64,000 nucleotides of DNA, from positions 292,082,001 through 292,146,000 of the forward strand of contig OZ024740.1 in assembly GCA_964016885.1 (NCBI GenBank), written 5' to 3'. The stretch comes from Eledone cirrhosa (lineage: Eukaryota). Of this stretch, positions 7,677 through 53,339 are shown in pieces. The position numbers and the translations under genes are program-made. The notes below the pieces were generated by a model that saw nothing but the letters and a program-made list of their open reading frames with translations, made no database searches and was not told where the DNA came from. Each line of letters begins with the position of its first letter. Within the stretch, counting starts at the first letter, position 1.

Positions 7677-8668
7677 ATCTGTGTGTATATCTGTTGACGT
7701 CGGTATATCTGTTGACGTTGGTATGTCTATTGACATTGGTATATCTGTTGACGTTGCTATAACTGTTGACGTTGGTATATCTGTTGACGTTGGCATGTTC
7801 TATTGACGTTGGTATATCTGTTGACGTTGCTATAACTGTTGACGTTGGTATATCTGTTGACGTTGGTATGCTCTATTGACGTTGGTATATCTGTTGACGT
7901 TAACATATCTGTTGACGTTGGTATATCTGTTGACATTGACATATCTGTTGAGTCGGTATGTTCTGTTGATGTTGGTATATCTGTTGACGTTGCTATAACT
8001 GTTGACGTTGATATATCTGTCGACGTTGGTATGTTCTATTGACGTTGGTATATCTGTTGACGCTGGTATATCTGTTGATGTTGGTATATCTGTTGACGTT
8101 GGTGTGTCTGTTGACGTTGGTATGTTCTGTTGACGTTGGTATATCTGTTGACGTTGGTATGTTCTGTTAACGTTGGTATATCTGTTAACGTTGGTATATC
8201 TGTTGACGTTGGTATATCTGTTGACGTTGGTATGTTCTATTGACGTTGGTATATCTGTTGACGTTGGTATATCTATTGACGTCGGTATGTCTGTTGACGT
8301 TGGTATGTTCTATTGACGTTGGTATATCTGTTGACGTTGGTATATCTGTTGACGTTGGTATATCTACTGACGTCGGTATGTCTGTTGACGTTGGTATATC
8401 TGTTGACGTTGGTATATCTGTTGACGTTGACATATCTGTTGAGTCGGTATGTTCTGTTGATGTTGGTATGTTCTGTTGACGTTGCTATAACTGCTAACGT
8501 TGGTATATCTGTTGACGTCGGTATATTCTCTTGACGTCGGCATACCTGTTGACGTTGGTATATCTGTTAACGTCGGTATACCTGTTGACGTTGGTATACC
8601 TGTTGACGTTGGTATATCTGTTGACGTTAGTATACCTGTTGACGTTGGTATGTTCTGTTGACGTTGCT
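7677..8668 (+). repeat. Minisatellite, ~18-bp unit ATCTGTTGACGTTGGTAT with 19-bp variants
   Basis: About 1 kb of directly visible tandem units with no unique spacers. Confidence 0.95.
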
Positions 8669-13483: not shown

Positions 13484-14317
13484 GCATTTATCTTGCTTTA
13501 TGTTCATACGAGTTATCACCAAGTCACAACCAGTGACCTCAAGGGACAACAAGGTCTGCCATGTTCAAGAAAGAACATACATACTGACACATGCATCTTT
13601 AGTGTTTAGACTTGTGATGTACTTATATTGACAGAATCTTCCTTAGTATATGGGCAGTTCCCATTAGTACTATCTTTTGTATTTCTCCTATACGCGGGTT
13701 TCCTGGGATTTGCGATAAGTAATCATTAGACCCCTTAGGTATCATTCCCAGAGCGCCTACAACCACTGGTATTGTTTTAGTTCTCAATTTCCACATTTTT
13801 CCAATTTCTATCTCCAGGTCCTTATACTTGCTCAATTTTTCAAATGTTTTTATAGATACATTCTTGTCTATTGGAACGGACATATCAATTAGCAGGCATA
13901 CCCTCTTTTTAAAGTCCTTCAATATTATATCAGGTCTATTTGCATCTATTTTTCGGTCTGTTTGGATGCTAAAGTTCCACAAGATTGAGATGTGATCTTT
14001 TTCAAGTATGGGAGGTGGTTGATGCTCCCACCAATTCTTTTGATGGGGCAGGTCAAAATGCTTACACATTATCCAATGTATGTATTGTGCAGCTCTGTCA
14101 TGCCTGTTTAGGTATTCGGTTGGAGCTATAGGACTGCACATTGAAATTATATGGTCAATGGTCTCTGGTTGTTTTTTGCATACACGGCATAATGGGCTGC
14201 ACCCATTTTTTATTATGTTGGCTTGGTAATTTTTTGTTGGCAGACACTGATCTTGTGCCGATATAATCAGTCCTTCAGTCTCCGATTTCAGTCCAGAGGA
14301 TGCCAACCACTGATGGG

Positions 14318-14318
<1 letters not shown>
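13480..14318 (-). mobile_element. 5'-truncated R4/Dong-like element of a second family (zinc knuckle, RLE, 3' UTR)
   Basis: Open 227-aa frame 13623-14306: CRVC...HIISMC, RPDIIL...IDMSVP...EKLSKY, IPVVVGALG. Flanked by (ATT)n at 13455-13478 and 14320-14380. Confidence 0.9.
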
Positions 14319-14463: not shown

Positions 14464-17400
14464 TCAGATATTCAGGACGTATCGGAGGGTTCTTGCTGTT
14501 CCAAGCAAGCATGCCTTTTGAAGCGTTCCAAAAAGCGTGAAGGGGCCGATTTTCTTTAACCATCCCTGGAAACTTTTGGAGATAGTCCCCAGTGCGCCTA
14601 TGACAATCGGGATCACTTTGACTTCATGGCAGTTCCAAATCCTTTTCACCTCCCACTTTAGGTCCTGGTATCGGTTAATTTTCTCCCTCTCCTTCTCTTG
14701 CACTCTCGTGTCGAACGGGCAGGCCACATCCACAATCAGACACGATCTTTTTTCTTTGTCCACAACCACCAGGTCAGGTCTATTGTGTTCCAGTTTTTTG
14801 TCCGTCTGTATCCTAAAATCCCACAGCACCTTCACCTGATTGTTCTCCATCACCGCCTCTGGCCTATGCTCATACCATTTCTCAGAATGTGGTAAATTGT
14901 TTACTTTGCACAGGTGCCAGTGGATCACCCTGCCCATCACATCGTGTCTCCATCCCTTATAGTGGGTTTGGGCTAGGTGTTTACACTCGGACACAATGTG
15001 AGCCACAGTCTCCTCTCTCTCTCCACAGATCCTGCACAGTGGGCTAGCCTCCTCCTTGTAAATATGGTGCTTCAACCACTTCGTTTTGAGGGCCTGCTCC
15101 TGCGCAGCCATTAGCATTCCTTCTGTAGCCTTTTTGAGGTCTCCTCTTCTCAACCAGTTCCATGTCTGTGGATCTCTAAATTCAGTTTTCTCAAAGAAGG
15201 TACTATGAAGGGATTTTCCCTTAAGGCTGCTCTTCCTCCTTGATGTTATTTCCTCCTTGGACATCCCCTGGCCTACTGTCCCCTCCTTCAGTACAGCTCT
15301 GAGCATTGGCTCCTTACTATAGGTCACGTATTTGTATAGGTTGTTTTTCTCCATCTGAACACAGTCCTCTATGCTGATAAGACCTCTTCCACCCTCAGAT
15401 CTCCTTAGGTAGAGTCTATCGACATCACTCCTCTTGTGGAACATGTTGTAGATAGTCAATAGCTTCCTAGTCTTCCTATCCATTTCTTTTTGTTCAGCAA
15501 CATTCCATCTCAGAATTCCCGCACTGTACCTAATAATAGACACAGCTCGGGAATTTACTGCGCTTATGGCATTTCTGCTGTTCAGATGTGACTTCAATAC
15601 GCTCCTTACTCTCCGAATGTATTCAGTTCTTAACAATTCCTTCATTTTTTTGTTCTTTATGCCATCAGCCTCCAGAACGCCCAAATACTTGTATCCTTCC
15701 TCAGAGTCAATTTCCTTTATCATCTCACCTGTTGGTATCTGGATCCCGTTACTTCTGCTCAACCTACCCCTCCTCATCACAATGACTCCACATTTACCAA
15801 TACCAAACTGCATACATATATCACTGCTGAAAATACGGACAGTGTCAACAAGCACATCCAACTCCTTCTCACTTTTCCCGAAGAGCTTAAGATCGTCCAT
15901 GAAGAGGAGGTGATTGATGGTAAGCTCTCCCCTTCCCAACTTGTATCCTGCTCTCATTTTTCGCAGCATGATGGTCAAGGGCATCAGGGCAAGGACAAAC
16001 AACAGAGGGGACAGGCTATCTCCCTGGAAGATACCTCTCTTGATCTTCACGCTTCCCAAGGATACTCCAGTTGATGTCAACTCTGTCTCCCAGGACCCCA
16101 TACTCCTGCCCAGCAACTGTCTGATGTTATCTGCCACCCTGAAGATTTCCAGGCTTTTGGTGATCCAAGAATGAGGCACCATGTCAAATGCCTTTCTGTA
16201 GTCTATCCATCCCATGGCAAGATCAGTGTGTCTCCTCCTGCAATTCCCCATTACCATCTTATCAATAAGTAACTGGTCCTTTGTACCACGTGACTTCTTT
16301 CGGCGTCCTTTCTGTTCGTCCGGTAACAAGTTGTTTGTGTGGAGGTGATGGTAGATTTCCTCAGACACAATGCTCGTCAACAGTTTCCACATTACGGACA
16401 GACATGTGATAGGTCTATAGTTGGTAACATCATTACCCTTGATTCGGTCTTTCATTATCAGAACTGTGGTACCTTTTGTCAACCACTCTGGCACCTCACC
16501 CGACACCAAGCAGTCATTGAACATGGCCGTCAGCTTCGGGTGGAGGGATGTTAAATGTTTAATCCAATACCCCTGCACACCATCTGGGCCTGGTGATTTC
16601 CAGTTGGTTAGTTTTTTGGCCTGCTCCTTAAGAGTTTCAACTGTGATACTCAAATCAGTCTGTTGCTGTGCCTGCTCACCGATCTCGCTCTGTACTGTCT
16701 CAATCCACCCTGCCTGGACATTATGTCTAACATCCTGCTCCCATATTCCTCTCCAGAATGTTTTAGTTTGCTCCGCCCCAGGGATCAAGTCGTTGCCTCT
16801 TTCTTTCCCCTCAAGCTGTCCAAACAACATCTTCTGGTTGTTGTCGAACATGCGGTTCTGTTTATACTGACTGACTCTGTTCTCGTATCGCCTGATTTTT
16901 GCACTCTTTGCTACAATGCGTTGCTTCAGTTCCTCTATGATAATATTTAGCTTTTTCCTCCTAGTTTTGTATCTTATTTCCAGTCTATTTTTAGTGCCTA
17001 TGTTTTTTAGTGTCCCATTCAGTAGTGACTCAAGCTTTCCTATGTCATTTCTCATCTCCCCGATTTGCCCACTCAGTCGCTTCTTCCACCATGGCTCTGC
17101 TCTTTCTTGTCTGTTGTTTCCTCTCGCTTTTATTCCAAGTAGTTTCCTCACCGTATTTGCTGTTGCTTTGAGGATATTGTTGCACTGGTGAAGGCTCCTC
17201 GCCTCAAGGTATGGGATGACTTTGTTTACCTTAGCTGTTGTTTCTTTTAACTTTTTCCTGTCTACAAATCTTAGGTTCATAGGTCTCCCACTATCATTGT
17301 TCAATTCATCTACCACTAAATTTAGGATGTCAACCGAATCTTGTCCTAGCCCGTCAGCATTCATCTCCTCAGTGGCCGTATCTCTGTTCCAGGTATTATT

Positions 17401-17856
17401 TATCTCAGTATTCAGATCATTGTCTGCTTCGGGTGGTTCCTCCGTTCTCAGGACCTCTTCACCTTCATTTCCCACTGGCTCGCTTGTCTGGCATACTACA
17501 CCCGCCATCTCCAAGCCATTCTCTCTGCTCAGTTCCTCCAGTTCCAGCTCGCTTATCCACCCATTAGTTCTTATTACCCGAGCCTGCCCGGCCAATTTTT
17601 GTTCATCTAATTTAAATAAACCAATCTCGTTCCAGATGTTATGCATCCGTCTCCTGTATCCCCTCTCCTTGGGGTTACTTTTCAGGTAACATTGCATAAC
17701 AGTTCTATTCAATTCTTTCGTCCAGTTGGTTCTGGCCCCTTTCCTTCTTCTCCTTCCTCCAACATCAGCAGTATTTGGTTGACAGTCAGGTTCCTGCTGC
17801 TGAGCCAGGGGGCACCTGTTGGGTGAGAGTCTGTCACATGACGTTCTAGTCTCCAT
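14464..17856 (-). CDS. R4/Dong-like non-LTR retrotransposon protein (RT, CCHC, restriction-like endonuclease), 1130 aa
   Basis: Uninterrupted ORF with N-terminal RTNWTKELN...CY...GYRRRM, RT motifs NYRPITCL, WIDYRKAFD, GIFQGDSLSP, FMDD, YKYLG, knuckle CRIC...HIVSEC and RLE RPDL...VDVACP...EKINRY. Confidence 0.95.
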   Translation of the reverse strand: METRTSCDRLSPNRCPLAQQQEPDCQPNTADVGGRRRRKGARTNWTKELNRTVMQCYLKSNPKERGYRRRMHNIWNEIGLFKLDEQKLAGQARVIRTNGWISELELEELSRENGLEMAGVVCQTSEPVGNEGEEVLRTEEPPEADNDLNTEINNTWNRDTATEEMNADGLGQDSVDILNLVVDELNNDSGRPMNLRFVDRKKLKETTAKVNKVIPYLEARSLHQCNNILKATANTVRKLLGIKARGNNRQERAEPWWKKRLSGQIGEMRNDIGKLESLLNGTLKNIGTKNRLEIRYKTRRKKLNIIIEELKQRIVAKSAKIRRYENRVSQYKQNRMFDNNQKMLFGQLEGKERGNDLIPGAEQTKTFWRGIWEQDVRHNVQAGWIETVQSEIGEQAQQQTDLSITVETLKEQAKKLTNWKSPGPDGVQGYWIKHLTSLHPKLTAMFNDCLVSGEVPEWLTKGTTVLIMKDRIKGNDVTNYRPITCLSVMWKLLTSIVSEEIYHHLHTNNLLPDEQKGRRKKSRGTKDQLLIDKMVMGNCRRRHTDLAMGWIDYRKAFDMVPHSWITKSLEIFRVADNIRQLLGRSMGSWETELTSTGVSLGSVKIKRGIFQGDSLSPLLFVLALMPLTIMLRKMRAGYKLGRGELTINHLLFMDDLKLFGKSEKELDVLVDTVRIFSSDICMQFGIGKCGVIVMRRGRLSRSNGIQIPTGEMIKEIDSEEGYKYLGVLEADGIKNKKMKELLRTEYIRRVRSVLKSHLNSRNAISAVNSRAVSIIRYSAGILRWNVAEQKEMDRKTRKLLTIYNMFHKRSDVDRLYLRRSEGGRGLISIEDCVQMEKNNLYKYVTYSKEPMLRAVLKEGTVGQGMSKEEITSRRKSSLKGKSLHSTFFEKTEFRDPQTWNWLRRGDLKKATEGMLMAAQEQALKTKWLKHHIYKEEASPLCRICGEREETVAHIVSECKHLAQTHYKGWRHDVMGRVIHWHLCKVNNLPHSEKWYEHRPEAVMENNQVKVLWDFRIQTDKKLEHNRPDLVVVDKEKRSCLIVDVACPFDTRVQEKEREKINRYQDLKWEVKRIWNCHEVKVIPIVIGALGTISKSFQGWLKKIGPFTLFGTLQKACLLGTARTLRYVLNI

Positions 17857-18059
17857 TTCACCGTTATTCGAACTGTTTATGTTCGATATTTAAACACTCT
17901 TATCGAGGATTGGCGAATGTATGGTTACATAGCCATCTGTGGATCCGCCATTCCACTTGGCCCTTGTGTGGCATTATCACCACGCTGTATACGAACACAC
18001 ATAAACAAACAAACACACAGGCAGAAAGGGCCCCAAAAATGAATAAGCATAAGTTTCAT

Positions 18060-18947
18060 TGTAATGTAGTGTTCGAATGTCTGACTTAGTTTTTGTTTTT
18101 TAAGTTTTAGTTTTTCCCCCCTCTTCTCTGTCCGTCCGCCTGCTTCTCTCTTCATTCTTATTTTCTTTACGTTTTTTGGGGTTTTTTTTTTTGTTTTTGT
18201 TTTTCTCTGTTTGTTTTTCTCGTTTTTTGCTGTTGTTGCTGTGCTGCTTTGGTTTTGTTGTTTGTTTTTTCTTTTTTCTTTTGAGTCTATATATATATTT
18301 TGATGCCTTCCTCTTTTTTAGCAGTAGGGATTCTATAATGTGGTGGCAGCAGCCAGCTTGAAGAAGTGGGAGACTGGCGGCGGTAGCGATACTGAGACAG
18401 TGGTGGTGGTGATGTCGATACCGAGGCAGTGGTGGCGGTGATGTGACCGTATTACTGTAGTGATGGTGCTGTAGCGGTGGTAGCAGTGAAGGAGTGAAGG
18501 GGTGGTGGCGGCGGTGATGGGATAATGGTGGTAATGATGGCCGTAGTGAGCGGTGGTGGTGAAAATGCCGTTATCTGGCTGTTGTGTTTAGTGTACACAG
18601 GTGATGGGGTGGGTGGTGTATCTAGTTTCTGGTGTTGGTGGGTTTGGCTGTTCTATATAGTGTAGACAGAGGAGAGGGGGGGGGGATTCTTCTTCCATTT
18701 ATAGCCATTTTCTTTTTTGGATATACAGTGTACAATACAAAGTTGAATATTTGAATATAACAATATATTTTGGGTCCGAAATTTTTGGGGCTCAAGCCGG
18801 GTGCTTTACGTAGCATTTGTACTAAGAGTTGTTATTTCACAAATGATTTAAATATGTTAAAAATTCAAAACTTACGGGAGCGATTTCATGACCTCCGTCA
18901 CCTCGTGCGTCTTCTTCCCTATATTTATTATTCTTCTTCCCTATCCC
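18060..18947 (-). mobile_element. Possible Tx1-like 5' UTR and decayed ORF1 start directly upstream of the R4 ORF
   Basis: Shares CTTGAGCCC(C)AAAATTT upstream of an AAAA..ATGGC start with the 19014 element, followed by Thr/Pro-rich then Lys-rich low-complexity sequence. Confidence 0.4.
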
Positions 18948-19014: not shown

Positions 19015-19229
19015 GGCGACCTACGTAGTAAATCGTATTATCGTGAGCTCCGCAAAGGTTTGTTATTTTCAGTTGTTTAAAATTTCCATTTATGGAAATT
19101 TTTTATTGTTAACTGTATATAAGTGCACATACATTGATTTCAGAAAAGGACACTCAAAAAGATTGGGGCCTTGAGCCCAAAATTTAAACTTTTTATAATT
19201 ATCAAACAAAAAAATTTCTTTGAAAAATC

Positions 19230-20444
19230 ATGGCCGACTCACAACTGAACCCAGTAGCTGAGAGCCTTCCTCACAAACTAACACCTCACACCGACACCAC
19301 CATTGTAAATATAACTACGTTTGCCAACACTAAAAATATAAACAGTAGCAATATTTTAAATTTGTCTCAGGCAGACATTCATTTCCCGCCATTACCAATG
19401 ACTGCAGGTGTTAAAGCCGCCACCCCACCATCACCACAGCGACAACAGAAACAAAAGAAAAAAATAAATTAACTCGTGATATCGAAATGAATTCAACCAA
19501 ATGAACTCTTCCACACCGAACACCACTGACGCCACCACCACCACAACTTGTGGTGAAGGAACCCACCTAAGGGCTTTCTGCCCTCAGACTAAAAGGTTGA
19601 GGCCACCCCAGTGACTCAACCATCAAAACCACCAGCAACAGAGATGGTAGCAACAACTGTAGCAGCAACAACAGAAGCAACTGTAACAGCAACAACCCCA
19701 GCAACAGTAGCAAAACCAACACCACCACCACCCAACGCGCCAGAGCTAGCACCAGCGCCTACACCATCCACCACGCCACAACCAAAACCAACTGCCGTGG
19801 AGGATTTTCCACTCCCCAGCCTATCACAACTGGAGACAGATTGTGATGACGAGGAGTGGGAAACGGTATCAGGAAAAAAGAAAAAAAGAAACCAAAAAAG
19901 AAAAAATTCTCTTCCCTCCCCCTCCAAAAACAAAATACAGAGGGAAACAAATAAACTATCAAACAAAAAAGTTAGGACAGATATGCCACCATCCACACCA
20001 GCATCACCAACCCCATCACCACAAACACCAACACCATCACCATCATTAACCCCAACACCACCATCACGAACACCACAGAAGTCACCAAAAAGCGAAACAG
20101 AAACAAACCTACAACAAACCCAAACAAAACAAAACAACCAAAACGATACACACTACACAGCATTAAATTTGAACAACAACCAATTATTACACTACATCCA
20201 ACACAACACCAGCATCACAGAAAAAGACGACACGACAACCCAAAAGTTCACACCACCTCCACACATACAAATCACTCGCATCACACAGAAAACGTACACG
20301 ACACTAAAACAAAAATTCCCCAAAGACATCGGAGACTTCCGACAAGCACTCTCCAGGAGGATTTATAAGGACATCCTTCCGGAGGAGGCCACAAGCAGTG
20401 AAAAGGATGGACAAACCATCCTTCCTCTACGAGAAGTAAGGTAA
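19230..20444 (+). pseudogene. Tx1-like ORF1 with its central domain deleted
   Basis: Low-complexity T/P/Q sequence, knuckle remnant CGEGTHLRAFCPQ at ~19549, DDEEWETVSGKKKKR motif. Lacks the ~200-aa region present at 48124-48670 in the other element. Confidence 0.7.
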
Positions 20445-20478
20445 GTGGTTTTTCCCATCTTTTCCACTCAATTTCAAC

Positions 20479-23400
20479 ATGACCTCACTCAGAATAGGCA
20501 GCATAAATGCGCGTGGCTTGGGGTCGTTATGGAAGCAGGGCCACCTGCTCAACGACCTCAGGTCACTAAACATAGATGTAGTGGCCATCAGTGAGACCAG
20601 AATCTCCGAAGCACGGGCCTTCGCACCGATCTTCAGCGGCTACGATGTGTACGCATCTCCCAGCCGTCCTGGATCGGGGGCAGGAGTTGCTGTGCTTTTT
20701 CGGAGAGGTTTGGATCTCGCCATACGGGCCATCTTCCTGGACCCAGAAGGTAAGTTGGTGGTGCTGGACGTGACCAGCGGAGACGGGCAAGCTTTCAGGC
20801 TAGTGGCCGTCTATGTCCCGACGGGAGCAGGGCGGCCTGATTTCTTCAGGCGTCTGGATACCTTTCTTGGAACGTCCCGCTCTTTAGTGTTAGTGGGCGA
20901 CTGGAACGGGATCTTAGATGCACGCTGGGACTGTGTGGGATTAGCGGATAGGGGAGGAGGGTGCAAGAGTCTCACCAACCTGCTCAAGCGTTTTGAACTG
21001 TCTGACAGGTACCGATTGGATTTCCCGAATGTGCCAATGTGGGCTTGGACAAACCGCATCGGGTCATCCAGATCATATCTAGATAGAGTATTTTGTAGGG
21101 AAATAGATAGGTCTAGCATAGGCTGTCCACAATTCAAGATAGTCAGCTACACGGACCACAAATTCGTGATCTGTGTGCTTGACTTAGATAGCCTTCATAG
21201 ACGAGGACCCGGCTACTGGAAGCTAAACGCCTCTTTACCAGCGCGCAAGGCCTACAGAGACCGGGTTAGCGAACTAGTTAAGCGAGCGTTGACGGGGGCC
21301 ATCGTCAACAACAAGTGGTGGTTTGCTCTGAAAAGAGCAATTAGAATAGAGTCCATTAGGTTTAGTAAGGCTTTAGCTATAGAGAAAAATAGAGCAGAGG
21401 GAGAACTAGTTAGAAAATTAGACGAGGCGCTTAGCAAAGGCATCGCGACCGACGTACTTGCGGCGAAATTGGCCCTTGACCAATTCTTCAATGCAAAGCA
21501 CCAAGGCTGCGTTGTCAGAGCTAGGGTGCGTGCTCTCAGACACGAGGGGACGAACGCCGTTCAATGGGCCCGAGTGGCGAAGGCGCGTCGTGGCAACAAA
21601 GCCAAGATCCGGTCTTTGGTGGACCACGACGGGCGTATGCTACTCGATCCCGGGCAAATATGTGAAGCTTTTCAGCGACACTTCGCTCAGCTGTTCGGAG
21701 GCAGCGGCGGGCCGGATCGTGGGATGGACTTTAGTGTCTACCTCGACGGACTGCCGCGGTTCTCGGCCAATGAGGCGGAGTGTTGCGAAAATCCGATAAC
21801 AGCCGCTGAAGTACGAGAGGCAATGACTGGCTGCACAAGGGGTAAATCGCCTGGTTTGGATGGTCTGCCCTATGAACTTTACGTACAGATGCCAGACTTG
21901 TTCGGAGGCCTCTTGGCGGACGTCTACTGCAACTGGCAACAGAACGGGAGAATTCCCAGCTCCGTGAGCCGAGGGGCGGTGGCGCTGCTGAGAAAGGATC
22001 CGAACAAGGGGAATAACAGATAATTTCAAGCCCATAACTCTGCTAAACACAGAGTTCAAGATTTTGGCCAAGGTGCTAGCAAAGAGGTTGGTGCTTGTCG
22101 TCGGTGGTCTGGTAGGAGAGGCGCAGACATGCGCCATTCCCGACAGATCCATCCACGACAACCTCCATCTCATGCGATACACCGTAAAGAGGGTAGCTAG
22201 GGAACCTGGCACGGGTGGGTCCTTGATCAATTTAGATCAGTCGAAAGCTTTCGATAGGTTCGACTATCGTTACCTAGCGGCACTCCTGAAGGCGGCTGGC
22301 TTTGGGTCCGTCTTCAGAGGCTGGATCGCTGCCATGCACAGCGACATCTGCTCTGTGGTGAGAGTGAACGGTCACCTTTCGGAACCGTTCAACATCATGT
22401 GCTCGGTCCGCCAAGGATGTCCCCTCTCGTACGTATTGACTCTCGAGCCATTACTGCACAAACTGGAGACGTTGAGGGGGTCCCGCGCGAACTAGGATGC
22501 GGAAGATCCGTGTCAGCATATGCGGACGATGTCACCGTAGTGGTGTCGAACGCCAAACACATCGAGGCGATCGGCACTACACTAAGAGAATATGAAGCGG
22601 TGCCAGGAGCAATGATCAACCAGGAAAAGTCAGTGGGCCTGCAGCTCGGCACCTGGAGAGGCAGGTCCATGCCGTCCAACAGCATCGTCGGGCGCTGGAT
22701 GGACGGACAGGTTAAATTGCTAGGGGTCTGGTTCGGTCCGGACCTCCAGACGGACAAAAACTGGGACGAGGTGACGAGCAGGGTGGCTTCTCTCACCCAG
22801 AAATAGGCGGAGAGGAAGCTATCCCTGAAAGGTCGAGCGGGGGTGGCTAACGCGTACATTGCGTCCGTCATCTACTACCGCCTGACCGTCGTACCTTGTC
22901 CTAAGCCCCACCTGACTGCGCTGGAGCGTTTGCTCTTTCGCTTTTTGTGGAAGGGACGCGCTCCGATGGTCAGGCGGTCCATCTGCTGTCAACACCCGCT
23001 ACGTGGAGGGCTGGGCGTGCCGTGGCTGATGATGCGCAGACATGCGCTCAGGCTAGGACATCTCCACCTCTTCCTAGACGGTGATCAGGTGTGGTCGCCG
23101 TTTGCTAGACACGTCTTTCCCCAGCTCGTCTCCTTGACGGAGCTGCAGTCCTGGGTCTCGGAAGACCGAGAGGGAGCACAATCGGGCAATGTGATCGGTG
23201 GAAACTCCACCTTGGCGTTCTATAGAGGATTAGTGGAGGGGGAGAGCGACGACGTACTTGGAGAAACTCTAGGCGTCGACGAAAATCAACTAGCCAATCT
23301 CTTCGGAAGGACTTTCGGGCCGGGGCATATGGACAACTTCCAGAAATCCCTGGCCTGGCAGTGCTACCGGAGAGCTTTGCCAGTTCGGGATAAACTCTAC

Positions 23401-23844
23401 AGGCATGGAGGTGCCGTCAGCCGGGTATGTCCGAGATGCGTGCAGGGCGACGAAGCCGTCCTGCACGCACTCGTCCAGTGTCCGAAAATTGCTGACTTGT
23501 GGGTTTATGGCGAACACTTGCTGTCACGTGTAGGACGGGTCCGGCTATCATCTGAGACCATCGTGAGGATTGCCCCGCCCTCTTCCTTTAGCCGGGAAGG
23601 GCAGGCAGTTTTTATCTGTCTGGTGGCCATGGCGAAAGAGATAGTATGGTGGACACGCTTGAAAGGGCTGAAGACGAGCACTTACCTCTTCGGTGATGCC
23701 CTGATTAACTTTTTCAAATTTCATTTGAAAAGGAAAATCAGGGTAGAAAGGGAAGTGCTCTCTTCCCAACATTTTGTTGAAAGATGGGTGAGAGAAGCAA
23801 GAATAGCCCGAGTGAATGGGCCTACTCTGAGTATGTGTCTGTAA
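20479..23844 (+). pseudogene. Tx1-like ORF2 (APE endonuclease, RT, Cys-rich domain), disrupted
   Basis: INARGL, GDWN, YLDR, TDH, KSPGLDGLP, DQSKAFD, RQGCPLS, YADD, CPRC...HALVQC. Frameshifts near 22015 and 22480; TAG at 22804. Confidence 0.93.
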
Positions 23845-24147
23845 ATTAAAGGTGGAAAACTGGGAGAGAGCACTTGCCTTGGTGGTCAGGGTCACTGTGG
23901 CCTTTTACTGGGCTTTCTCCACAAATGTCCTTCCGAAGTCCCTCCCCCCCTATTGGGGAATTATTCATTGTTATTTTTTGTTACATCCTCTGTTTTTGTT
24001 TTTTACACGCAGAAATGCCCATTTGTACCGTCCTGTATTGTCCCGCACTGTCCTTAATGTCTACTTTATGTAAACCCTTGTGGTTAATAAAGAAATCATT
24101 ATTACATATATATTATTATTATTATTATTATTATTATATTATATATA

Positions 24148-24547: not shown

Positions 24548-25110
24548 CAGTGTTGTGCGTAATTCAGAGACCAGCCAAATCATTTTATTAGGTTAGGCTA
24601 ATATTGAATAAGATACAATTATTACATAAAAATAGTATATTATTACAAACATACAACACAAAGCATTATGCTACAAATTATTTATTTCAAATTAGTACTT
24701 TGATGACCTTTAGTAGCAATTACTGCAGCAATTCTGCGAGGCATTGATTGTACCAAGGAGGCACAATATTCAGGAGTAATGTGTTGTGTCCATACAGTAA
24801 GAATTTTTTTAATTGTAAATCAGTAATTGAGCTCTGATTTAGCTTGGCAACTTTGTCTTTCATGAATTTCCAACAAGTTTCAATTGGGTTTAAGTCAGGA
24901 CTTGAACCTGGTCAAAGTGCCGGCACTTCAATATCAGATTTTCGAAAAAATTGGTTAATGGTTTTTACCCTATGACAAGGAGAACCATCTTGTTGATATA
25001 TCTTGTAACCATGAATCGATAATGGGACCTTTTCTCATATGATTTCCAAATACATGTTTGCATTTACAGTCTTTCCTGCTGGAATTATGGTGAGTGCAGC
25101 TCGTTCATTT
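24548..25110 (-). mobile_element. Tc1-like transposon 3' fragment with one TIR
   Basis: Minus: YQQDGSPCHR, PGSSPDLNPIETCW, SLVQSMPRRIAAVI. End reads TA|CAGTGTTGTGCGTAATT at 24548. Confidence 0.85.
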
Positions 25111-25119
25111 AGGCTTATT

Positions 25120-27884
25120 GATCCCAAACCTAATGAAAAACTCATGTACGTAGATACCAAGTCTAACCACCCTAGATCAACATTAAACTCTATCTCTAAG
25201 GGAGTATCCAATAGAATCTCTAATCTATCCTATGACGTAAACATATTTAGCAAAAACTCGCAATATTATAATATGGCATTAGCTAGATCAGGCCATAATA
25301 TAGAGATCGAGTTCCTACCTACAAAAACACATAGCTACAACATTATTTCGCACAATATGTCCATGAGGAAATTTAGTAATAAGAATAGCAACCACACACA
25401 CACTAATACGGAGGATGCCAACAAAAGTAACCCACACCACAGAAATTGCCATAGTACCATAAAAGGAAACAACTCACCAGACATAAAAAACAAAAATAGA
25501 AGAAGAAATAATACATTTTTCAACCCTCCTTTCAATCTAAACGTCTCTACCAACCTACATAGGGCTTTCTTCTCACTACTAGATAAAAACTTCCCATCTG
25601 GCCACAAGTACCATAGCCTTTTAAACAAAAACACTATTAAAATCTCCTACTCTACTACGCCTAACATAGCATACCACATAGCTAGTAGCAATAAAAGAAA
25701 AATTAATTCTTACTTCCAACAAACTAAATCACAACAGACGATAAACCTTCAAAATAACATTATATCAACTAACCCTAATAACAATAGAAATAATAGTAAT
25801 AGCACTGTAAGCAATAACGCTGGGAACGACAACACCCATAACCATAATCCTATAGCTACCATCCAGACTTCTACACAACATAATAACCGGCAGACTAACA
25901 CCCAAAATAATTGTAACTGTAGATCAAATAGAACCTGCCCTTTAGATAAAAAATGCTTAATCAAGAATATCATATACTCATGCACCGTCACAACTAGCAA
26001 CTCTTCTGAAACCTATATAGGCTCTACTTCAAACTGCTTCAAAACCAGATACAATTCGCACCTCCACTCTTTCAAAAAAACACAGTCTAGCCAACTCCAC
26101 CTCACTGTCTAGCTACATACACTATCTAAAAACTAAAAATAAATCTTATACACTTAAATGGGAAGTGATAGGTAACGCAACATCGTACAAACCACCTAAT
26201 AAATTTTGTAACCTCTGTCTACTAGAGACCCATACTATTATCTTCTCAAACCATAACCTCCTTAATAAAAAATCAGAAGTGTTCGCGCCTTGCCAGCACC
26301 GCTTCCGACACTCCTTCCAAAACTTTAAACCCAATATATAACAATGTCAGACTTGAACCCGTCACCACCTCTAGCAACAAACCTCAAGGGCACACCTTAC
26401 ACCACATCTCCACACTCATTGATCCACTTTAACACAAATAGTGACATCCTCCTTGTACCTTTTACTCTAGAGATATCTCCATGTACATCTACTTTTGGTA
26501 TATTTACCTTCATTTACTTAGACTACATTACACCACTATATAATTAATGTAAACTTTAAGCACGGAATTGGTTGTGCTAATGTTGTTCTGTGTATGGAGT
26601 GCCATCATTGGATAAATGGAAGATTAATTAATTTATTAACATAAAAGAGCTATATAACCTATATGCTGAGTGCAATGAATTATGTACAAGTGATGTATGA
26701 GTTATACATACATGTATGACTTGATGGTAAGATTAGTGACATTGTAAGTGAGAATTGATCTCTGGTCTACCCTAGTGATATTTAACTTTACCATGCAATC
26801 AGACATGCACTGTTCCAAAGCTTACCAGGAGTTATATATAGAAGTGATTCTAATAAAACCCTGCCAGGTTCTGCGGGTAGACTACACTTACAAAGATCAT
26901 TGATTTGGAGATCTGACTCTTCATGTAGAATATTCAGTTGTGGCACTCTATGATAGAAGGTAATCGTCCTAATATGAACACCTTTAGTACTTCTTGATAG
27001 ACTACACTGTAATTTATAAATAAGATACTTAAATGTAGAAACTGATTATAACCTTATATGATAGGGACTCATTTGAGAGACCATTTAATGTACATTAGGA
27101 TAATAAATTTAGTTATAGAAATCAGCTAGTTACCTCCCCTCACGCATTAACTCCCCTTAATCACACACACACTTGCGTAAAATAATACGATGTCAATTCT
27201 CGCAACAAAAACAACCTGCTCTATAAAATTGGATTAAAGAACAACAAGATGTAATATTCTAACATAATTCATCAAACATCCAATATTGAATCATCGTAGA
27301 TTATGTGAAGGACATATAATCTATATATTACGTTTCCTGGATTGTGAAAATGGTGAATACGAAAACCATAACATTGTTTTGCTTCTCATTTATAATATTT
27401 TTAATATTTCTCTACACACAAGCGTCTATATCATACATATAAAAAATACTTTACCAATACAACCCCCATAATACTCTTGATTGCCCGCTTAAAGTGCTTG
27501 TATTACATATAACACCCTGCCGCACTATAATCTTATATAAACTAGACACACGTGCATGCCCCATGTGTAACTATTGCATACACTAACTACTTCAAACTAT
27601 CCTCTTGCTTTATCTTCGTAAACTGCCAATGTTGTATTTTAACTTTAATTTTGTTCTTTGATATGACTTTAATCTTTGAATGTAAATTGCCATGCTAAAT
27701 ATTATAATGGATGTCAACCCACTGTGCATCAATATATACATATGTTTCTGTATGTCTCTTGTGTTGAAAAGGTGGTCATGTATGTAAATAATCATTGAAA
27801 AATTGCTCCGAAGACTCCAAACCTCGGTTTGGAAGAAACAATTGTAAGCGAATAAATGGTTTAAACAGAACTTTGATTCATGTA

Positions 27885-39958: not shown

Positions 39959-40387
39959 CGTGAACCTAATAAACACATATTTGTACTGCCTCTCTGTTTT
40001 TGTTCCCGTCTAAGTTTTAACTATACGATACACGCTCACACGGATTCCACACCACCTTGGAATACCACCTTGACCACCGGCTCAACCCCGATTTAATCCG
40101 CCGTGACAAACCTCTGAACTTTCCTCAAACTCTCCCACAAACCTTTTCTTCCCTTGTTTATTGTTTCCTATTCTATCGTTTTTCCTCCCTTTTCTCTCCC
40201 CACTTTTTTCAAAATGGCTTTCCACCACTCCCACACACACCCTCGGAATTCTCTTCCTGCCCACTTTTCTCCTGATGAAGGGCTTATGCCCGAAACGTCG
40301 TTCCCCACCCCCACCCCACTCTCAAAAGCGTGAACCTAATAAACTCTTATTTGTACTGCCTCTCTGTTTTTGTTCCCGTCTAAGTTT

Positions 40388-40395
<8 letters not shown>
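39954..40395 (+). mobile_element. 370-bp PLE pLTR/retrozyme-like unit with 72-bp terminal direct repeats and a minimal hammerhead
   Basis: Direct repeats 39954-40025 and 40324-40395; C-CTGATGA-AGGGC-TTAT-GCCC-GAAA-CG-TC-G at 40271-40300; flanked by (TA)n. Confidence 0.8.
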
Positions 40396-40465
<70 letters not shown>

Positions 40466-40467
<2 letters not shown>

Positions 40468-41033
40468 CGGACAGACGTTCATCCACGAAACTCGCAAGCC
40501 ACGTATGGTCCCTCAAGGACTCAAGTATAGACTACTCCATTCAATGGAAAGCCATCACTATGTCCAAGCCATACGCAAGGGGAAATCCATCGTGTGGACT
40601 ATGTATTGATGAACGAATAAATATTCTAAAGAGATTATGCAATAGTGAGTGCCTAAACACGAGAAATGAATTCTTCACACGTTGTCCACACGTCTCGAAA
40701 CACCTCTTACATAACTACAAAGCTCCGGATTGAATCACAACAACATCCTAATTTTCTTATCAACTAGAAACTTTTCGGACTTTTGCAGTTATCTCCCTTA
40801 CACCTCGCACGCTTTTTAGTATTGCCTGTGTGAAGTGACGGTTTCTGCGCATGCGCGTTCGTACGGTTGTCCTTCCTGTTCCGTATAACCATGTCCATTA
40901 CGAGCTGAGGATCCGCTAAGGTGAAACAATTGTTCTCGGCATGGTGAACTAACTGTTGTGTAACCACTTCTACCTAACTCGTCCCATGGCCTGAGTGCTC
41001 TACCACTACGGATATTACCTTCCAGTGTTCTAC

Positions 41034-46344: not shown

Positions 46345-47543
46345 CCTAAACTTTCCCCCTCTCTATATCTACTAAACGACATTCTCCAATTATCCCTCTC
46401 TCTATATCTACAACTACCAAATTCTCCCCCACTCTATATCTAACATACAAAACACTCTCCCAATCCCCCCCCTGTATATCATCTCCAAACTCTCCCTCCT
46501 CACCATCTCTATCACACTCTCTCGTAATCGTTCTCTCTCTTTCCAATACAAACTCTCCCCTCTATATCTTTTACGACAAAGTCTCACCCAGTCCCCCTCT
46601 ATACATTTAGGAATATTTATCTCTCCAACCTCCTCGTTATATCTACAAACATTGAAGTGTACCCCCTCTCTATATCTACTATACGACACTCTCTCTCCCA
46701 AACACCGTCTCTATATCAATTACCACCAAACTATACCCCTCTCTATATCTGCCATACATCACTCTCTCTCATTCCTTCTCACTCTATCCATCACTACCAA
46801 ACTCTCTCCCTCCCTATATCTAACAATACCTATCTCTAGCAATCCTCTCACTCTATTCATTACCACCAAACTCTCCCCCTCTCTACATCAACCATACAAT
46901 ACACTTTCCCAATCCCTCTATATATCAATGAGCATCAAACTCTCCCCTTCTCTATATCTACTACACGGAACTCTCTTCCAGTACCCCTCTCTACATCAAT
47001 AAACATCAATCTCTTCCCCTCTCTATATCTAATATACAACACACTCTCCCAACCCCCCTCACTATATCAATGACCACCAAACTATTCCCCTCTCTACATC
47101 GACCATACAACACTCTCTCCCAATCCCCCTCTCTATATAAATTAACACCAAATCTCCCCCTCTCTATATCTACTACAGGGAACTCCCTTCCAATTCCCTT
47201 CTCTATATCAATTTACATCAACCGATCTCCCTCTCTCTATCTACCATACAACACTCTCTCTCATTCCCTCTAACTCTATCCATCACTACCAAAACCTCCC
47301 TCTCTATATACCTATCAATCCTCTCACTCTATTCATTGCCATTCTCTATATTTACCTCTCGGAACTCTCTTCCTATCCCCCCTCTCTATATCAATTAACA
47401 CCAAACTTTCCCTCTCTGTATATCTACTACACGGAACTCTCTTTCAATCCCCCTCTCTATATCAATAGACATTAATCTCTCCTCATCTCTATATCTAATA
47501 TACCACACACTTTCCCAGTTTTCCTCTCTATATCAATTACCAC
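46345..47543 (+). repeat. Degenerate CT-rich minisatellite (~31-bp units, CTCTATATCAATTACCACCAAACTCTCCCCT); resumes at 53245-53310
   Basis: Recurrent CCCTCTCTATATC motif roughly every 30 bp. Confidence 0.85.
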
Positions 47544-47743
47544 TTGATATAGACGTGAATTACTTCGCTCCGGATTTGTACGGATTATTGTAAAAAAACT
47601 GTGAGTTCATTGCTCAATTTAATAGCATTGTTTAGTTTAACCCCTTGCCTGGGCCTTCAGACGTTGAGTCAACTAATTTTCGCCCCTTTCTGGGGCAAAA
47701 TTTTTATTTTCATCTCAAAACTGTGTAGACTTGGTAGTCAGCA

Positions 47744-49536
47744 ATGGATGCCATTTCAACCTCGCACACTGTCGTGAGTGCCACGCCCACTAAGAAAAGT
47801 GGTGGAGGGAAGGTGGGAGTACAAAGCTTGCAGCCTTCCCCCCTCGCATTATCGAAAAACGTTGAAAATATTGAAACCACGAAACCAAACCCGGTAAATA
47901 ATACCAGCACCAACAACAAGAACAATGACAATAGCACCACAACCAACAACTGCAACAATAGCAACACCAAGGAAAACATAAACAATATTACCAACAGTGA
48001 CAACAACAGCAGCAACAAAAAAGACAACAACACCAAAACAACATTCGCACAGACTGTAAAAAAAACGAACTATACACGCCAATAGACATAACAAATGCTA
48101 AACAACAAGACGCAAAACAATTCGTGACTTTTGGCGAAAACGGTGCTTTTAGCATCAATTCTCCACAGGAATTACGTAGAGAGGCTGTCCTGAAAACCAC
48201 AGTTTTCAGGACAATATCGAACGAAACAAGAAAACCAGCTCAATTATCACAAAAAGAAATTGAGCTGGTTCTAAAAGATGCAATGAAGGACTTAACCTTC
48301 ATACAAAAAGGTAAACTGTTTGGTAGCATTTCGGTGCTAATGAACAACCAGTCAACAGCACAAAAGTACTCGATATCGCCCATTGTGTCCACCCGCTTCA
48401 CCTTTTTCCCCACATATAGGGGAAAAAGGACACAAAGAATAAAAATAATGAGTATCACACCAAATGTAAATATTTGGTGGATACTATGTGGAATCATTGA
48501 CTTTGATGAAGACAAGATAATTTCAATAGGAAAGTCCTCCGGAGGTGTATTTGGTGGGACCAGCGTAGAAGTTCTGGTGCAAATGAGCCCAGAACGAATA
48601 GCGAATATCCCACAACGCGTGCCTCTGGACGGGCTAACTTATATAAACATTTCAGTGGGGGGAAGGCGGCCGTCATGTTACCACTGCTTAAGCAGGGGTC
48701 ACCTGAGGGCTGCCTGTCCTCAATTAACGAGTAAAAAAAAAGGCTCTTCTGCCAACCCCGAACACAACAACACAACCACCACCACCACCACCACCACCAC
48801 CACCACCACAACACAGAAAAATAACAACACAAAACACTGTTCCACCCAATCCCTCCCCACCTAAAACAAATACAAAAGCAACCACAACAAAACCCAAAAA
48901 TATACCCCTCCCCAAAAACACGGAAGAGGACTCCGTATCAACGTCACCCAGTGACGACGAGGGAGAACCCTTTCAACAGGTGAAAAGGAAAAAAAAAGGC
49001 ACCACATTAACAAAAATGCTACAAACACACAACCACCAGCACAAACAGAACAAACATCACAAACAAAAAACCCACCCCTCCCCAAAACATAACATACTAC
49101 AAAACGCAAACACGCACAAGAACAACAAACAAAAACAAACACAACACAACAAAAACTCTATACATACATTAACAAGAACAATAAAACTTTAATGAAAGCG
49201 ATAGAAAATAACCCTTCGGTGGAAACCGAAGGGATCACTTTCACCTACGCAGCGAACAAACCGCACCTAATGATGATTAGGGTCCTAACGGAAACCTATG
49301 TAACTTTGAAAAAGAACCACCCAATGCATGTGGGGACCAACTGCACCAAACCACTTAACCACGTCCTATTGAGATGTTTCCCCACCCCCACACCAGACAC
49401 CCACACCCCACCAAACACCCTAATGCCACCACACACTGATGTCCTCACCCCACCACAAACCACCACCCCACCAAACAACCCTTCCAACACCCCCATGGAA
49501 ATTGTGCAGCCTGGTCCCCAGGAGACGAAGAGGTAA
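47744..49536 (+). pseudogene. Tx1-like ORF1 (Gag-like, CCHC knuckle), disrupted
   Basis: Asn/Thr-rich N-terminus, globular region, CYHCLSRGHLRAAC knuckle, SDDEGEPFQQVKRKKK motif; several frameshifts. Confidence 0.85.
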
Positions 49537-49578
49537 GTAATTTCCTTTGCTCTTCCTTTTTAACTCTTCAGCACCAAC

Positions 49579-52500
49579 ATGGCCAATATAAGAGTTGGAT
49601 GTGTGAATGCACGCGGCCTGGGAATGTCCTGGAAACAGGGCAAACTCTTAAATGACCCCAGGTCGCACAGAGTGGATGTAATGGTTATTTGCGAGTCCAG
49701 GATCAACAGCGAGCGCCAACTGGCCCTCATCTTCGACGACTTTGAGATCTACGCATCTCTCTGTCAGCCGAGGGGGGGGGGGTTGTCGTTCTGCTGCGAA
49801 AATACCTGGGTCTTGCCACACAGAAGGTACGCCTGGACCCGGAGGGTCGACTGGTGGTTTTAGACGTCGGCAGTGGTGAAGGTGGAGCTTTCAGGCTGGT
49901 GGCAGCGTATGCCCAATCTGGGACACCGCGACCGGACTTCTTCCGACGCCTGGAGAATTTCCTGGGAACGTCTCGCTCCTTGCTTTTAGTGGGGGACTGG
50001 AATGGTATCCTGGATGTACGTTGGGACTATGTAGGGGCATGTCCCGATAGAGGGCGGTATAACAGCCTCAAACGATTAATCGGCCGATTTGATCTGGCCG
50101 ATAGATATCGACTAGATTTTCCGACTGTGCCACTGCGGACGTGGACTAATCGCAGCGGAACATCTAGGTCGTACCTAGATAGGTTCCTAGTTAGAAATAA
50201 GGATAGGGACATATTAAGCTGTCCACAAATGTTCATGGTTGACTATTCGGATCACAAGTTGGTGACCGGAGTGGTCAACCTTGATAGAACTCATAGACAG
50301 GGACCCGGTTACTGGAAGCTAAACTTGTCTTTACCGACAAACAAAGCTTACAGTAAGCGGATTAGCACACTAGTTAAGCAGCGTTTGACGGGGGAAATTG
50401 TCAACAGCAGGTGGTGGGGATCTCTCAAGAGAGAAATTAGAATAGAATCGATAGGTTTTAGTCGGGAATTAGCATCAGATAGGAATAGAACTGAAAGGGA
50501 TTAACAAATAGAGTAGAAGAGGCGATTAGGAGTGGCAACGTGGCCGGCGTGCTGGCGTCAAGAACGGCCCTAGACCAGTTCTTTGATGCGAAGCACGAGG
50601 GCTGCGTTGTCAGGAGTAAAATACGTGCTCTGGGTAACGAGGGAGCCAAAACTGTTAGCTGGGCCCGAGTGACAGAGGCAAAAAGTGGAAACAAGTCCAC
50701 GATTCGGTCTTTGAAGGACCAGGATGGATGCGTGATCCTTGAACCTGAGCGGATGAGCGCGGCCTTTCAACAGCGCTTTGCACAACTGTTCGGGAGGGGC
50801 GGCGGGCCGGGTGGGGCCATGGATTTCGGTCCATACCTCGACGGTCTGGCGCGGCTCTCGGACGGGGAGGCGAAGTCCTGCGAGAGGCCGATTTCAGCCG
50901 CTGAAATAGGGGATGCGCTGAGCCAATGCAGCAAACGCAAATCTCCGGGTCTCGATGGTCTACCATACGAACTTTATGTAGCGATGCCGGGCTTGTTCTC
51001 CGGTCTCCTCGAGGCGGTCTACTGCAACTGGCAACAGAACGGGAGAATTCCCAGTTCTGTGACCAAGGGCGTAGTTACGCTGGTGAGGAAGGACGAGAAC
51101 AAGGGGGATGACATAGATAACTTCAGGCCCATAACTCTGCTAAACACAGAGTTAAAGATTTTGGCCAAGGTGTTAGCGAAGAGGTTGGCGCTTGTCGTCG
51201 GGAACCTGGTGGGAGAAGCGCAGACATGCGCAATCCCGTCCAGGTCCATACACGACAACCTCCACCTCATGCGATACATCGTAGAGAGGGTAGGGAACGA
51301 ACCCGGCTTTGGTGGGGCCCTGATCAACTTGGATCAATCTAAGGCGTTCGATAGGGTTGATCATCGTTACCTGGATGCGGTGCTCGCGGTGGCAGGCTTC
51401 GGATCCGTTTTCAGGGGCTGGATTGCTGCAATGCACAGCAGCAACACCTGCTCGAGGGTCAAGGTGAACGGCTACCTCTCGGAGCCGTTCCAAATCACGC
51501 GATCCATCCGACAGGGATGCCCTCTCTCCTCCCTCCTGTATGTGCTGGCTCTCGAGCCACTACTGCGGAAGCTGGAGCTGTTGCAGGGCATCCCCTTGGA
51601 ACCGGGATTGCGGAAAGCGGTGTCGGCCTACGCCGATGACGTGACAGTAATGGTGTCGTGCGCCTCGGAAATCGGGCAGATCGGCACCTTACTGGAGGAA
51701 TATGAAAGATTCACAGGAGCTAAGCTGAACCGGGACAAGTCCGTCGGCTTGCAACTCGGGACGTGGAGGGGAAAAACGATGCCCTCCGACGACATCATCG
51801 GACTCTGGACGGAGGGACCGGTGAAGCTGCTTGGGGTCTGGTTCGGACCGGACCTCCAGGTGGAGAAACACTGGGACGAGATAACGGGCAAGGTGTTTGC
51901 ACTCGCCCAGAAGTGGGCCGAGTGCAAACTATCCCTGAAAGGTCGAGCGGAGGTGGCGAACGCTTATATAGCGTCTGTCATCTACTACCTCTTTACCGTC
52001 GTGCCTTGCCCAGAGTAACACTCGCCAAAATGGAGCGCGCGCTCTTCCGATTTCTTTGGAAGAAGCGGGCTCCTTTGGTGAGAAGATCCATCTGCTGTCA
52101 ACACCCTTCGAGCGGAGGGCTGGGGATGCCGTGACTGACGATGCGTAGACACGCATTAAGGCTACGGCACCTCCAGGTATTCCTCAGCCGGTGTGGGCCC
52201 TGTTTGTGAGGCGAGCCTTTCCGAAACTTGTCTCACTCACCGAACTGCAATCCTGGGTCAAGCAAAGACCGACTAAAGTGGGCGACTGGCACATTGAATG
52301 TACCCAGGCGCTCACGGCCCTCTGGCAAGCGGATCCGGCAATCAGTGGAGACTCAACCTCAACATTCTATAGAGGGTTGGTGCGCATAAGTGCGACGATG
52401 CTCTCGGAGAGGCTCTGGGCATGGAGGAAGATGAGCTGGCCAGTCTGTTCGGTAGGACGTTTGGCCCGGGACCGATGGACAACTTCCAAAAGTCCCTGGC

Positions 52501-53001
52501 TTGGCAATGTTACCGAGGAGCTCTACCCGTTCGGGACAAGCTCTACAGACACGGGCCCCCGGGTAGGGACCCCTCGAAGAAGATCTATCCGAGATGCGTG
52601 CGTGACGAGGAAACCGTCGCACACGCATTCGTACACTGCCCGGGCGTTGCTGACCTGTGGGGCTATGTGGAACGACTACTGCCGCGGGTGGGACCAATCC
52701 AGTTGACCACCGAGAAAATTGTCACGATCAAACCGCCTCCCCTTTTCAAAAACGAAGGAGAGGCGGTTTTCCTCTGTGTGATAGCCATGGCAAAAGAAGT
52801 TGTATGGTGGACAAGGTTGAAAGGGCTGAGGTCAGACACCTTTCTCTCCGGCCAATCAACTGGTCTTTTTTTTCAAGTACCACTTTAGAAGAAGGATCAG
52901 AATGGAGAGAGAAGTGCTCTACCCCAGCAAGTTTTATGAAAGGTGGGTGAAAGTAGCGAGAATGGCCCGAGTGAATGGGCCCTCTCTATATATCAGCCTG
53001 T
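49579..53001 (+). pseudogene. Tx1-like ORF2 (APE and RT), disrupted
   Basis: VNARGL, GDWN, SDH, NFRPITLLN, DQSKAFD, RQGCPLS, YADD. Frameshifts near 49775, 50500, 52190, 52385, 52870; stops at 52016 and 52132. Confidence 0.93.
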
Positions 53002-53339
53002 AGGTGAGGGAGGAGAAGAATGAGAAGAGGAAGGAAGCACCCGCTCTTTGTGCTTCTGAAGAGGAGCGTTTCACATTTTTTCGGGGGTGTGTGCGACCCA
53101 TGTCAACGCCCCTCCCTATTGAGGACATCGATTGTTAAATTTAATTTGTTATATGTTTTTTACACGTCTTTTTAAATGTATGTAAACTCCCCCCTTTGTA
53201 TTTGTCCCAATCTTTGATGCCCTGGTGGCAAATAAATAGAAATTTATATCAATTACCACCAAACTCTCCCCCTTTCTATATTTATATCTATCTTTCCAAT
53301 CTATTTCTACATAACATGTACAGAAATTGTGGCGCATAT

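Follow-up and report, generated by a model that had tools for sequence, protein, structure and literature searches.

Long interspersed nuclear elements (LINEs) with two open reading frames (ORFs) make much ORF1 protein and little ORF2 protein, and both this balance and the route to ORF2 are described as an open question in the cited account (PMC3894237). Ty1/copia elements carry a conserved splice donor near the end of gag that yields a gag-only mRNA, and U1 is additionally reported there to suppress premature termination (PMC5580714). In SART1, with its UAAUG coupling, and in L1, ORF2 is started by termination-reinitiation according to the cited passages (PMC3894237, PMC5972666). Splice sites in LINEs are usually regarded as harmful accidents. 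In this study, a stretch of 64,000 nucleotides (nt) from Eledone cirrhosa (GCA_964016885.1, contig OZ024740.1, positions 292,082,001 to 292,146,000 of the forward strand; hereafter the window) was analysed. Two LINE families in the window, family 1 and family 2, carry a motif resembling a strong splice donor (donor 1) directly over the ORF1 stop codon. Our preferred reading is tentative, with a probability of roughly 0.45: donor 1 would bind the U1 small nuclear ribonucleoprotein (snRNP) and be spliced in part of the RNA to an acceptor behind ORF2, thereby giving an ORF1-only mRNA.

Donor motif and candidate distal splice signals in the window and in relatives

The family-2 motif AGGTAAGT reads as a donor-like AG/GTAAGT (the slash marks the predicted splice boundary), and it overlaps the TAA at 49534-49536 that closes the last ORF1 frame. 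An initial annotation of the window had placed a donor AAG-AG/GTAAGT with its GT at 49533 at this stop, and both the sequence and the position of the stop bear it out. As GAG/GTAAGTAA, it is the best match to the 5' splice site consensus among the 277 GT sites of family 2, and by U1 complementarity the junction donor ranks first in both families; this ranking is a crude score devised for the analysis. AGGTAAGT lies over the ORF1 stop of family 1 as well. The annotation had assigned the same donor-at-stop and the same in-frame acceptor to both families; the donor is indeed common to them, but the acceptor is not, the family-1 AG lying inside ORF2. The 8-mer occurs six times in the window against 2.17 expected, and six or more occurrences were reached in 1 of 100 shuffles. 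It lies near 8 of the 4394 TAA/TAG triplets of the window, the two junctions included, and in four elements near 2 of 571 other TAA/TAG triplets. The features are as follows.

19015-24100, forward strand: family-1 LINE, between (TTA)n tracts
20439-20446, forward strand: family-1 donor motif overlapping the ORF1 stop; rank 1 of 257 GT sites
20441-20492, forward strand: candidate 52-nt intron of family 1; AG inside ORF2, behind the ATG at 20479
23990-24012, forward strand: pyrimidine tract and CAG in the 3' untranslated region (UTR) of family 1; ranks first among the acceptors of the element and lies 3572 nt from donor 1
47544-53244, forward strand: family-2 LINE; 15-bp duplication, Pfam domains, depth rising to the 3' end
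47598-47606, forward strand: weaker donor-like ACT/GTGAGT in the family-2 5'UTR; might pair with the spacer acceptor
47744-49536, forward strand: family-2 ORF1 in several frames; CCHC knuckle region, C-terminal domain common to family 1 and relatives
49531-49538, forward strand: donor 1, AG/GTAAGT over the ORF1 stop TAA of family 2; rank 1 of 277 by U1 complementarity
49533-49571, forward strand: candidate 39-nt micro-intron of family 2; tract, second TAA, TTAAC, TTCAG
49575-49581, forward strand: ORF2 start, CAAC ATG; context same in family 1
49579-53003, forward strand: family-2 ORF2 (AP endonuclease, reverse transcriptase (RT), zf-RVT), broken by frameshifts and stops
53001-53009, forward strand: predicted donor 2, TAG/GTGAG behind the ORF2 stop of family 2; weaker, counterpart conserved in relatives
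53231-53236, forward strand: AATAAA, poly(A) signal of family 2

Family 2 is a full-length but decayed L1/Tx1-type LINE inside a 71-bp satellite, flanked at 47529-47543 and 53245-53259 by a 15-bp target-site duplication. Its ORF2 matches the Pfam families Exo_endo_phos, RVT_1 and zf-RVT in that order, the last at 25.7 bits, just under the cut-off (above it in family 1). Against solved structures, the ORF2 profile is closest to L1 ORF2p (E 7.7e-105), with R2 proteins at 9e-38 or weaker; an atlas search added the sole label 'RT'. Neither ORF is intact, owing to frameshifts and stops. A CCHC zinc knuckle in ORF1 is a feature of the Tx1 clade, and zf-CCHC passes the cut-off in two relatives (L004 and L024) and reaches E 0.079 in the window copy, whose ORF1 aligns to those of both relatives over 200 amino acids (aa). 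For both window families, the label Tx1, taken over from the initial annotation, is putative. The ORF1 C-termini and spacers of the two families had been called unalignable; this holds for the spacers and the last 40-65 ORF1 residues, but not for the C-terminal domains, which align at 35% over 60 aa (E 1.6e-7). In contigs from three runs of one sample, of unstated kind but behaving as DNA, the depth over family 2 rises from about 4,000 in ORF1 to more than 200,000 near the 3' end with all 30 bins covered, as for a high-copy, 5'-truncating family. The microsatellites and kinds of repeat in the window are suggestive of a cephalopod similar to an octopus. In O. vulgaris, 13 recently active L1-Tx1 families are reported (PMC13282606).

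With one copy per family, the insertion sites are the 71-bp satellite for family 2 and (TTA)n for family 1. The satellite (a 142-bp dimer; 46662-47543 and 53245-53280) is a possible specific target. The ORF1 of family 1 (19230-20444) is short, about 1.2 kb. Nothing in it matches the N-terminal half that bears the knuckle in family 2 and in the relatives, which likely reflects an internal deletion or a different ORF1 type. A low-complexity, ORF1-like stretch at 17925-18800 on the reverse strand stands back to back with the 5' end of family 1 and has no blast match to either family. A CCCTCCC..TATT motif is present in the 3'UTRs of both families (23940-23956 and 53108-53124) and of lineage A, described below (L004, 3190-3210), and is possibly a recognition element for RT.

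The junctions of relatives come from animal DNA contaminating bacterial metagenome-assembled genomes. The main source, G001, is a GTDB genome labelled Arenicella with at least 65 head-to-tail copies of an animal LINE in 6.4-6.9-kb units. Its arrays (contigs C3-C19; L002-L044, L121, L134-L153) contain mixed subfamilies and 5'-truncated units; they are host contamination and a sign of an element inserting next to itself. Lineage A from this genome has an endonuclease about 40% identical to those of the window families, and a C-terminal ORF1 motif is common to them. Its junction reads TAAG/GTAAGT, 7 nt, ATG in 42 of 43 loci, the 42 being tandem copies in one assembly and counted as one lineage; three copies that were compared are 91-94% identical to one another. 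Intact ORF1s of 633-709 aa set its ORF1 stop at the TAA before the donor.

Conservation of the donor letters exceeds that of the surrounding sequence. Fourfold-degenerate sites are identical at 34 of 71 positions (0.48) between the window families and at 8-13 of 41-43 (0.19-0.30) between these families and lineage A, yet lineage A keeps 8 of 8 donor letters in a different frame, and neutral retention is therefore hard to credit. The letters directly behind the motif vary among subfamilies. In L123, which is 71% identical to L024, the junction reads TAG GAG/GTAAGT, 5 nt, ATG, and indels flank the motif on both sides. Because AGGTAAGT is kept in a relative with saturated synonymous sites, conservation of the putative donor points to selection on nucleotides, and the initial proposal of a donor under selection is supported, more strongly than before, by this third lineage. 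Two decayed copies lack the motif, L043 by one change and L122 by a deletion. The window clade, lineage A and L121 form three branches whose order the tree does not resolve, and putative donor 1 marks three of the four lineages of one clade. Among 16 distant L1-group junctions (L125 excluded as too short), none had G/GTRAG near the ORF1 stop; the near-misses were a weaker A/GTGAGT at the stop of L230 and an A/GTAAGT inside ORF1 of L089. Lineage A and L123 have their stop 1-3 nt upstream of the donor and the ORF2 ATG 11-13 nt downstream of the GT, so a partner acceptor for their donor would have to be distant; splicing would not remove the stop in either, and both are without an AG between the donor and the ORF2 ATG. 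ORF2 keeps its own ATG at the start of the domain in all lineages.

Other contaminated contigs gave further elements. Four contigs of G004 (C5, C46, C57 and C68; L199-L230) hold clusters of many intact, diverse L1-group LINEs in the same orientation, several with TAATG overlaps and others with T-rich spacers. A tandem array in G001 (L145, contig C2) has a 2188-bp unit with two tRNA genes and is likely host DNA. A short interspersed nuclear element (SINE) stretch of the window had no match in G001 or G002, which gave no sign of kinship between the hosts.

A second donor-like motif (donor 2) stands at the end of ORF2. In lineage A, all 7 aligned rows, two of them nearly identical, have G/GTRAGT there, as does L122; it overlaps the ORF2 stop in five of these rows and lies 14 nt behind it in L004 and L024. 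L121 has CAG/GTAAGT 40 nt behind the ORF2 stop, and family 2 has the weaker TAG/GTGAG directly behind it. As a background rate, G/GTRAG occurs in 2.4-4.7% of 50-nt windows. Further downstream, at 168-264 nt from the ORF2 stop and upstream of the poly(A) signal, comes a pyrimidine tract with YAG, again kept in 7 of 7 aligned rows; this candidate acceptor ranks first in family 1, L004, L036 and L121 and third in L024. Splicing from donor 1 to it would remove an intron of 3.6-3.7 kb, and the ORF1 of family 1 would be extended by about 20 codons up to a new stop. The predicted second donor at the ORF2 stop and the candidate 3'UTR acceptor in relatives are a new observation.

Possible roles of the motif

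In the distal-splicing reading, U1 snRNP would bind donor 1, and a fraction of the RNA would be spliced from there to the 3'UTR acceptor, whereby ORF2 is removed and an ORF1-only mRNA arises. The unspliced RNA would serve as the copying template, and termination-reinitiation at ORF2's own ATG would yield ORF2p. Nonsense-mediated decay spares transcripts whose junction lies within about 50 nt of the stop, and the placement of the junctions at the stops may serve this escape. The features that this reading draws on were observed directly in the sequence. They are the motif itself, its location at the stop, the fact that three lineages retain it regardless of the stop frame, the second donor-like motif at or just behind the ORF2 stop, and the 3'UTR pyrimidine tract with YAG in most relatives. 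A fuller version, in which ORF2 in its entirety acts as an alternative intron and two donors at the two stops compete for one 3'UTR acceptor to give ORF1-only and bicistronic mRNAs while unspliced RNA is copied, is doubtful. In the literature searched, outside of which lay most subscription journals and Repbase reports, no conserved donor at LINE stop codons was reported.

Several observations weigh against distal splicing. The candidate acceptor before the poly(A) site is present in family 1 and the relatives but not evident in the family-2 copy, where the AG at a distance of 39 nt scores highest instead, and family 1 has no clear donor 2. Because these LINEs commonly have T-rich 3'UTRs and spacers, base composition can produce acceptor-like sites. 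Donor 1 ranks only third to fifth of about 365 GT sites in L004, L024 and L036, and the L121 lineage lacks it in 3 of 3 copies and has a TAATG stop-start overlap instead. Splicing of human L1 is reported to be detrimental in the cited passages (PMC5860796). No spliced retro-copy was seen in G001, where 65 of 65 ORF1 ends are followed by an endonuclease match, and the aligned units retain the donor-2 stretch. Their absence is to be expected if the spliced mRNA lacks RT, and is less expected for splicing from donor 2.

The same strong donor might act as a docking site for U1 without splicing, so that the full-length transcript is guarded against premature cleavage and polyadenylation or against termination, or is helped in its processing. 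We consider this unlikely, yet it accounts for a strong donor with no usable acceptor nearby, for the indifference to the stop frame and for the absence of spliced retro-copies; one to five A[AT]TAAA hexamers lie in the A-rich ORF1 upstream of the donor in all six elements, and a U1 role is shown for EVD in the cited account (PMC5580714). The obvious target is nevertheless missing, as AATAAA or ATTAAA inside ORF2 downstream of the donor was found in 0 of 6 elements (0.26-0.55 expected in each), and docking leaves both the siting of the two motifs at stop codons and the conserved 3'UTR acceptor unexplained. The siting at stops is what a translation signal would provide, that is, a strong stop context, multi-frame stops or a reinitiation element that only resembles a donor. 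The motif is always at a stop, and TAAG or TAA-G-TAA places stop codons in two or three frames. At the ORF2 end, the alternation between GTAAGT and GTGAGT is likewise one between TAA and TGA, and the motif-less lineage has the TAATG overlap, as if one coupling device replaced another. However, conservation extends to the exonic AG/G and to the final GT, letters that are dispensable for a stop, and the second motif of L121, L004 and L024 lies 14-40 nt behind the stop with no downstream ORF to couple, which makes a signal of this kind improbable. Least probable of all is an inherited or chance sequence without function. In its favour, the three lineages have a common ancestry, the motif is absent from one sister lineage and from two decayed copies, and the 8-mer also occurs by coding chance at 20748 within family-1 ORF2; the divergence at fourfold sites around eight intact letters, the varying spacer letters of close subfamilies and the 16 distant junctions without G/GTRAG speak against it.

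The initial annotation had proposed an intron of 39 nt in family 2 whose removal joins ORF1 in frame to ORF2; in family 1, the corresponding intron would be 52 nt. Either would take out the ORF1 stop and give an ORF1-ORF2 fusion protein. The arithmetic is correct: the first AG after the family-2 donor, at 49570-49571, is 39 nt on and in frame with the ORF2 ATG at 49579, and excision joins the two ORFs in frame. The first AG of family 1, at 20491-20492, is 52 nt from the donor and also in frame; for two independent cases, such a coincidence has a chance of about 1 in 9. The best donor and the best acceptor of the family-2 element flank the 39 nt, which hold the pyrimidine tract, a second in-frame TAA, TTAAC and TTCAG. 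The DNA contigs have C instead of G at 49549 in about 97% of the depth, giving a purer pyrimidine tract, with donor and acceptor unchanged among the 40 of 531 differing places listed. Introns of such length exist, with validated human cases of 43, 49 and 56 nt (PMC4463651) and fly introns of 40-50 nt with a mean branch point at -14 (PMC5762160), as given in the cited passages. The tract, TTTAAC and TTCAG noted earlier are thus present, but the branch-like role of TTTAAC is not confirmed: the sole branch-like A (yTnAy), position 31 of the 39, follows the tract at 30 nt from the donor and only 8 nt from the intron end (position 47 of 52 and 5 nt in family 1), a non-canonical layout in which no branch point lies upstream of the tract at a workable distance. 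The acceptors are not homologous, one standing before ORF2 and the other inside it, and the CAAC ATG context is kept in both families. The pyrimidine share in the 30 nt before the ATG (0.73 and 0.80) equals that of five distant donor-less junctions (0.60-0.83), and L210 and L225 have pyrimidine tracts without any AG; because donor-less distant LINEs have similar spacers, the tract is not diagnostic of an intron. A spliced fusion RNA could be copied in full, and intron-less copies would then be expected to spread; the 15 of 304 contig joints listed include none, which is weak evidence. Fusion is also impossible in the relatives with the same motif, where the stop is 5' of the donor and no AG precedes the ORF2 ATG. 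Protein searches gave no fusion: the N-terminal part of ORF1 (searched in longer proteins) and the C-terminal alignment had no match, and among 14 ORF2 matches of 912-1368 aa in proteins of 901-2570 aa, none of the 8 inspected had an ORF1 part, weak evidence since these are gene calls on DNA. ORF2 starts within 8 residues of its domain in 59 of 62 relatives with a recognisable start, also weak since gene callers force Met. A 39-nt fusion as a conserved function is therefore unlikely, and even a lineage-specific use is improbable. The caveat of the initial annotation, a U1 site or a distal acceptor, was judged the better reading, with splicing itself still a prediction.

Other repeats and signals in the window

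An open, single-ORF RT element of 1141 aa with an RVT_1 match occupies 14464-17889 on the reverse strand; its C-terminal part resembles a restriction-like endonuclease, presumably of the Dong/R4 type. A second, broken copy split by a short repeat (11568-13392) and a related 3' fragment (13623-14318) lie on the same strand, and all three are tied to (TTA)n tracts, like family 1. Fragments at 25015-26112, 9988-10820 and 40107-40733 are taken by us to resemble Penelope-type GIY-YIG endonuclease tails; 25015-26109 had no Pfam match. A tandem array with 18-bp and 73-bp units, in 54 copies, begins at 7685 and ends at 8666.

A TGGGA behind the donor of L024, resembling a termination upstream ribosomal binding site, was rejected, as it varies among subfamilies. 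Junction folds had no common structure by eye (without shuffles), Rfam had no match in the window or in four loci and thus gave no small nuclear RNA target or ribozyme, and a scan of viral contigs found nothing. A single 21-residue match in metagenome contigs was not used.

Comparison with described systems

If the version with two competing donors is true, the spliceosome would set the ORF1p:ORF2p ratio of a non-LTR (long terminal repeat) element, as copia does for gag. A donor maintained by selection at the ORF1 stop, with a counterpart at the ORF2 stop, would reveal a LINE that deliberately employs U1 or the spliceosome and has arrived at the same strategy as copia by convergence. When elements of high copy number land in introns, strong donors on their sense strand might in addition capture exons of the host.

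Drosophila TART, in the cited account (PMC1636488), is likewise a non-LTR element with head-to-tail arrays and spliced transcripts. Its introns lie in antisense transcripts, whereas the signals of the window LINEs are on the sense strand at ORF stops. Human L1 shares the L1-group architecture, splice signals in the sense RNA and a spacer with a second in-frame stop, as in family 2; its inter-ORF spacer is 63 nt with two in-frame stops. The sites described for human L1 and its spliced integrated retrotransposed elements (SpIREs) lie in the 5'UTR and ORF1 and were judged detrimental, and the cited passages mention no donor at the ORF1 stop (PMC5860796). As in the coupling of SART1 and L1, ORF2 retains its own ATG close behind the ORF1 stop, and TAATG overlaps occur in the sister lineage L121 and in three distant families. 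Such coupling has no need of a splice donor, and it explains the ORF2 start but not the motif.

Ty1/copia elements (Arabidopsis EVD and Drosophila copia) are similar in having a conserved, U1-matching donor close to where the structural, RNA-binding ORF ends, and in the two RNA forms that are predicted here, one spliced for the structural protein and one unspliced as template. They are LTR elements with a single gag-pol ORF, whereas the window LINE is a two-ORF non-LTR element. The published accounts describe a short intron with premature termination for EVD and an intron of about 3 kb for fly copia, with splicing shown by RNA and mutants, whereas the present case is known from sequence. Unlike copia, the window LINE has its putative donor at a true stop codon and a second donor-like motif at the ORF2 stop. 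The motif is thus a clade-restricted LINE cis-element that likely works like the copia donor.

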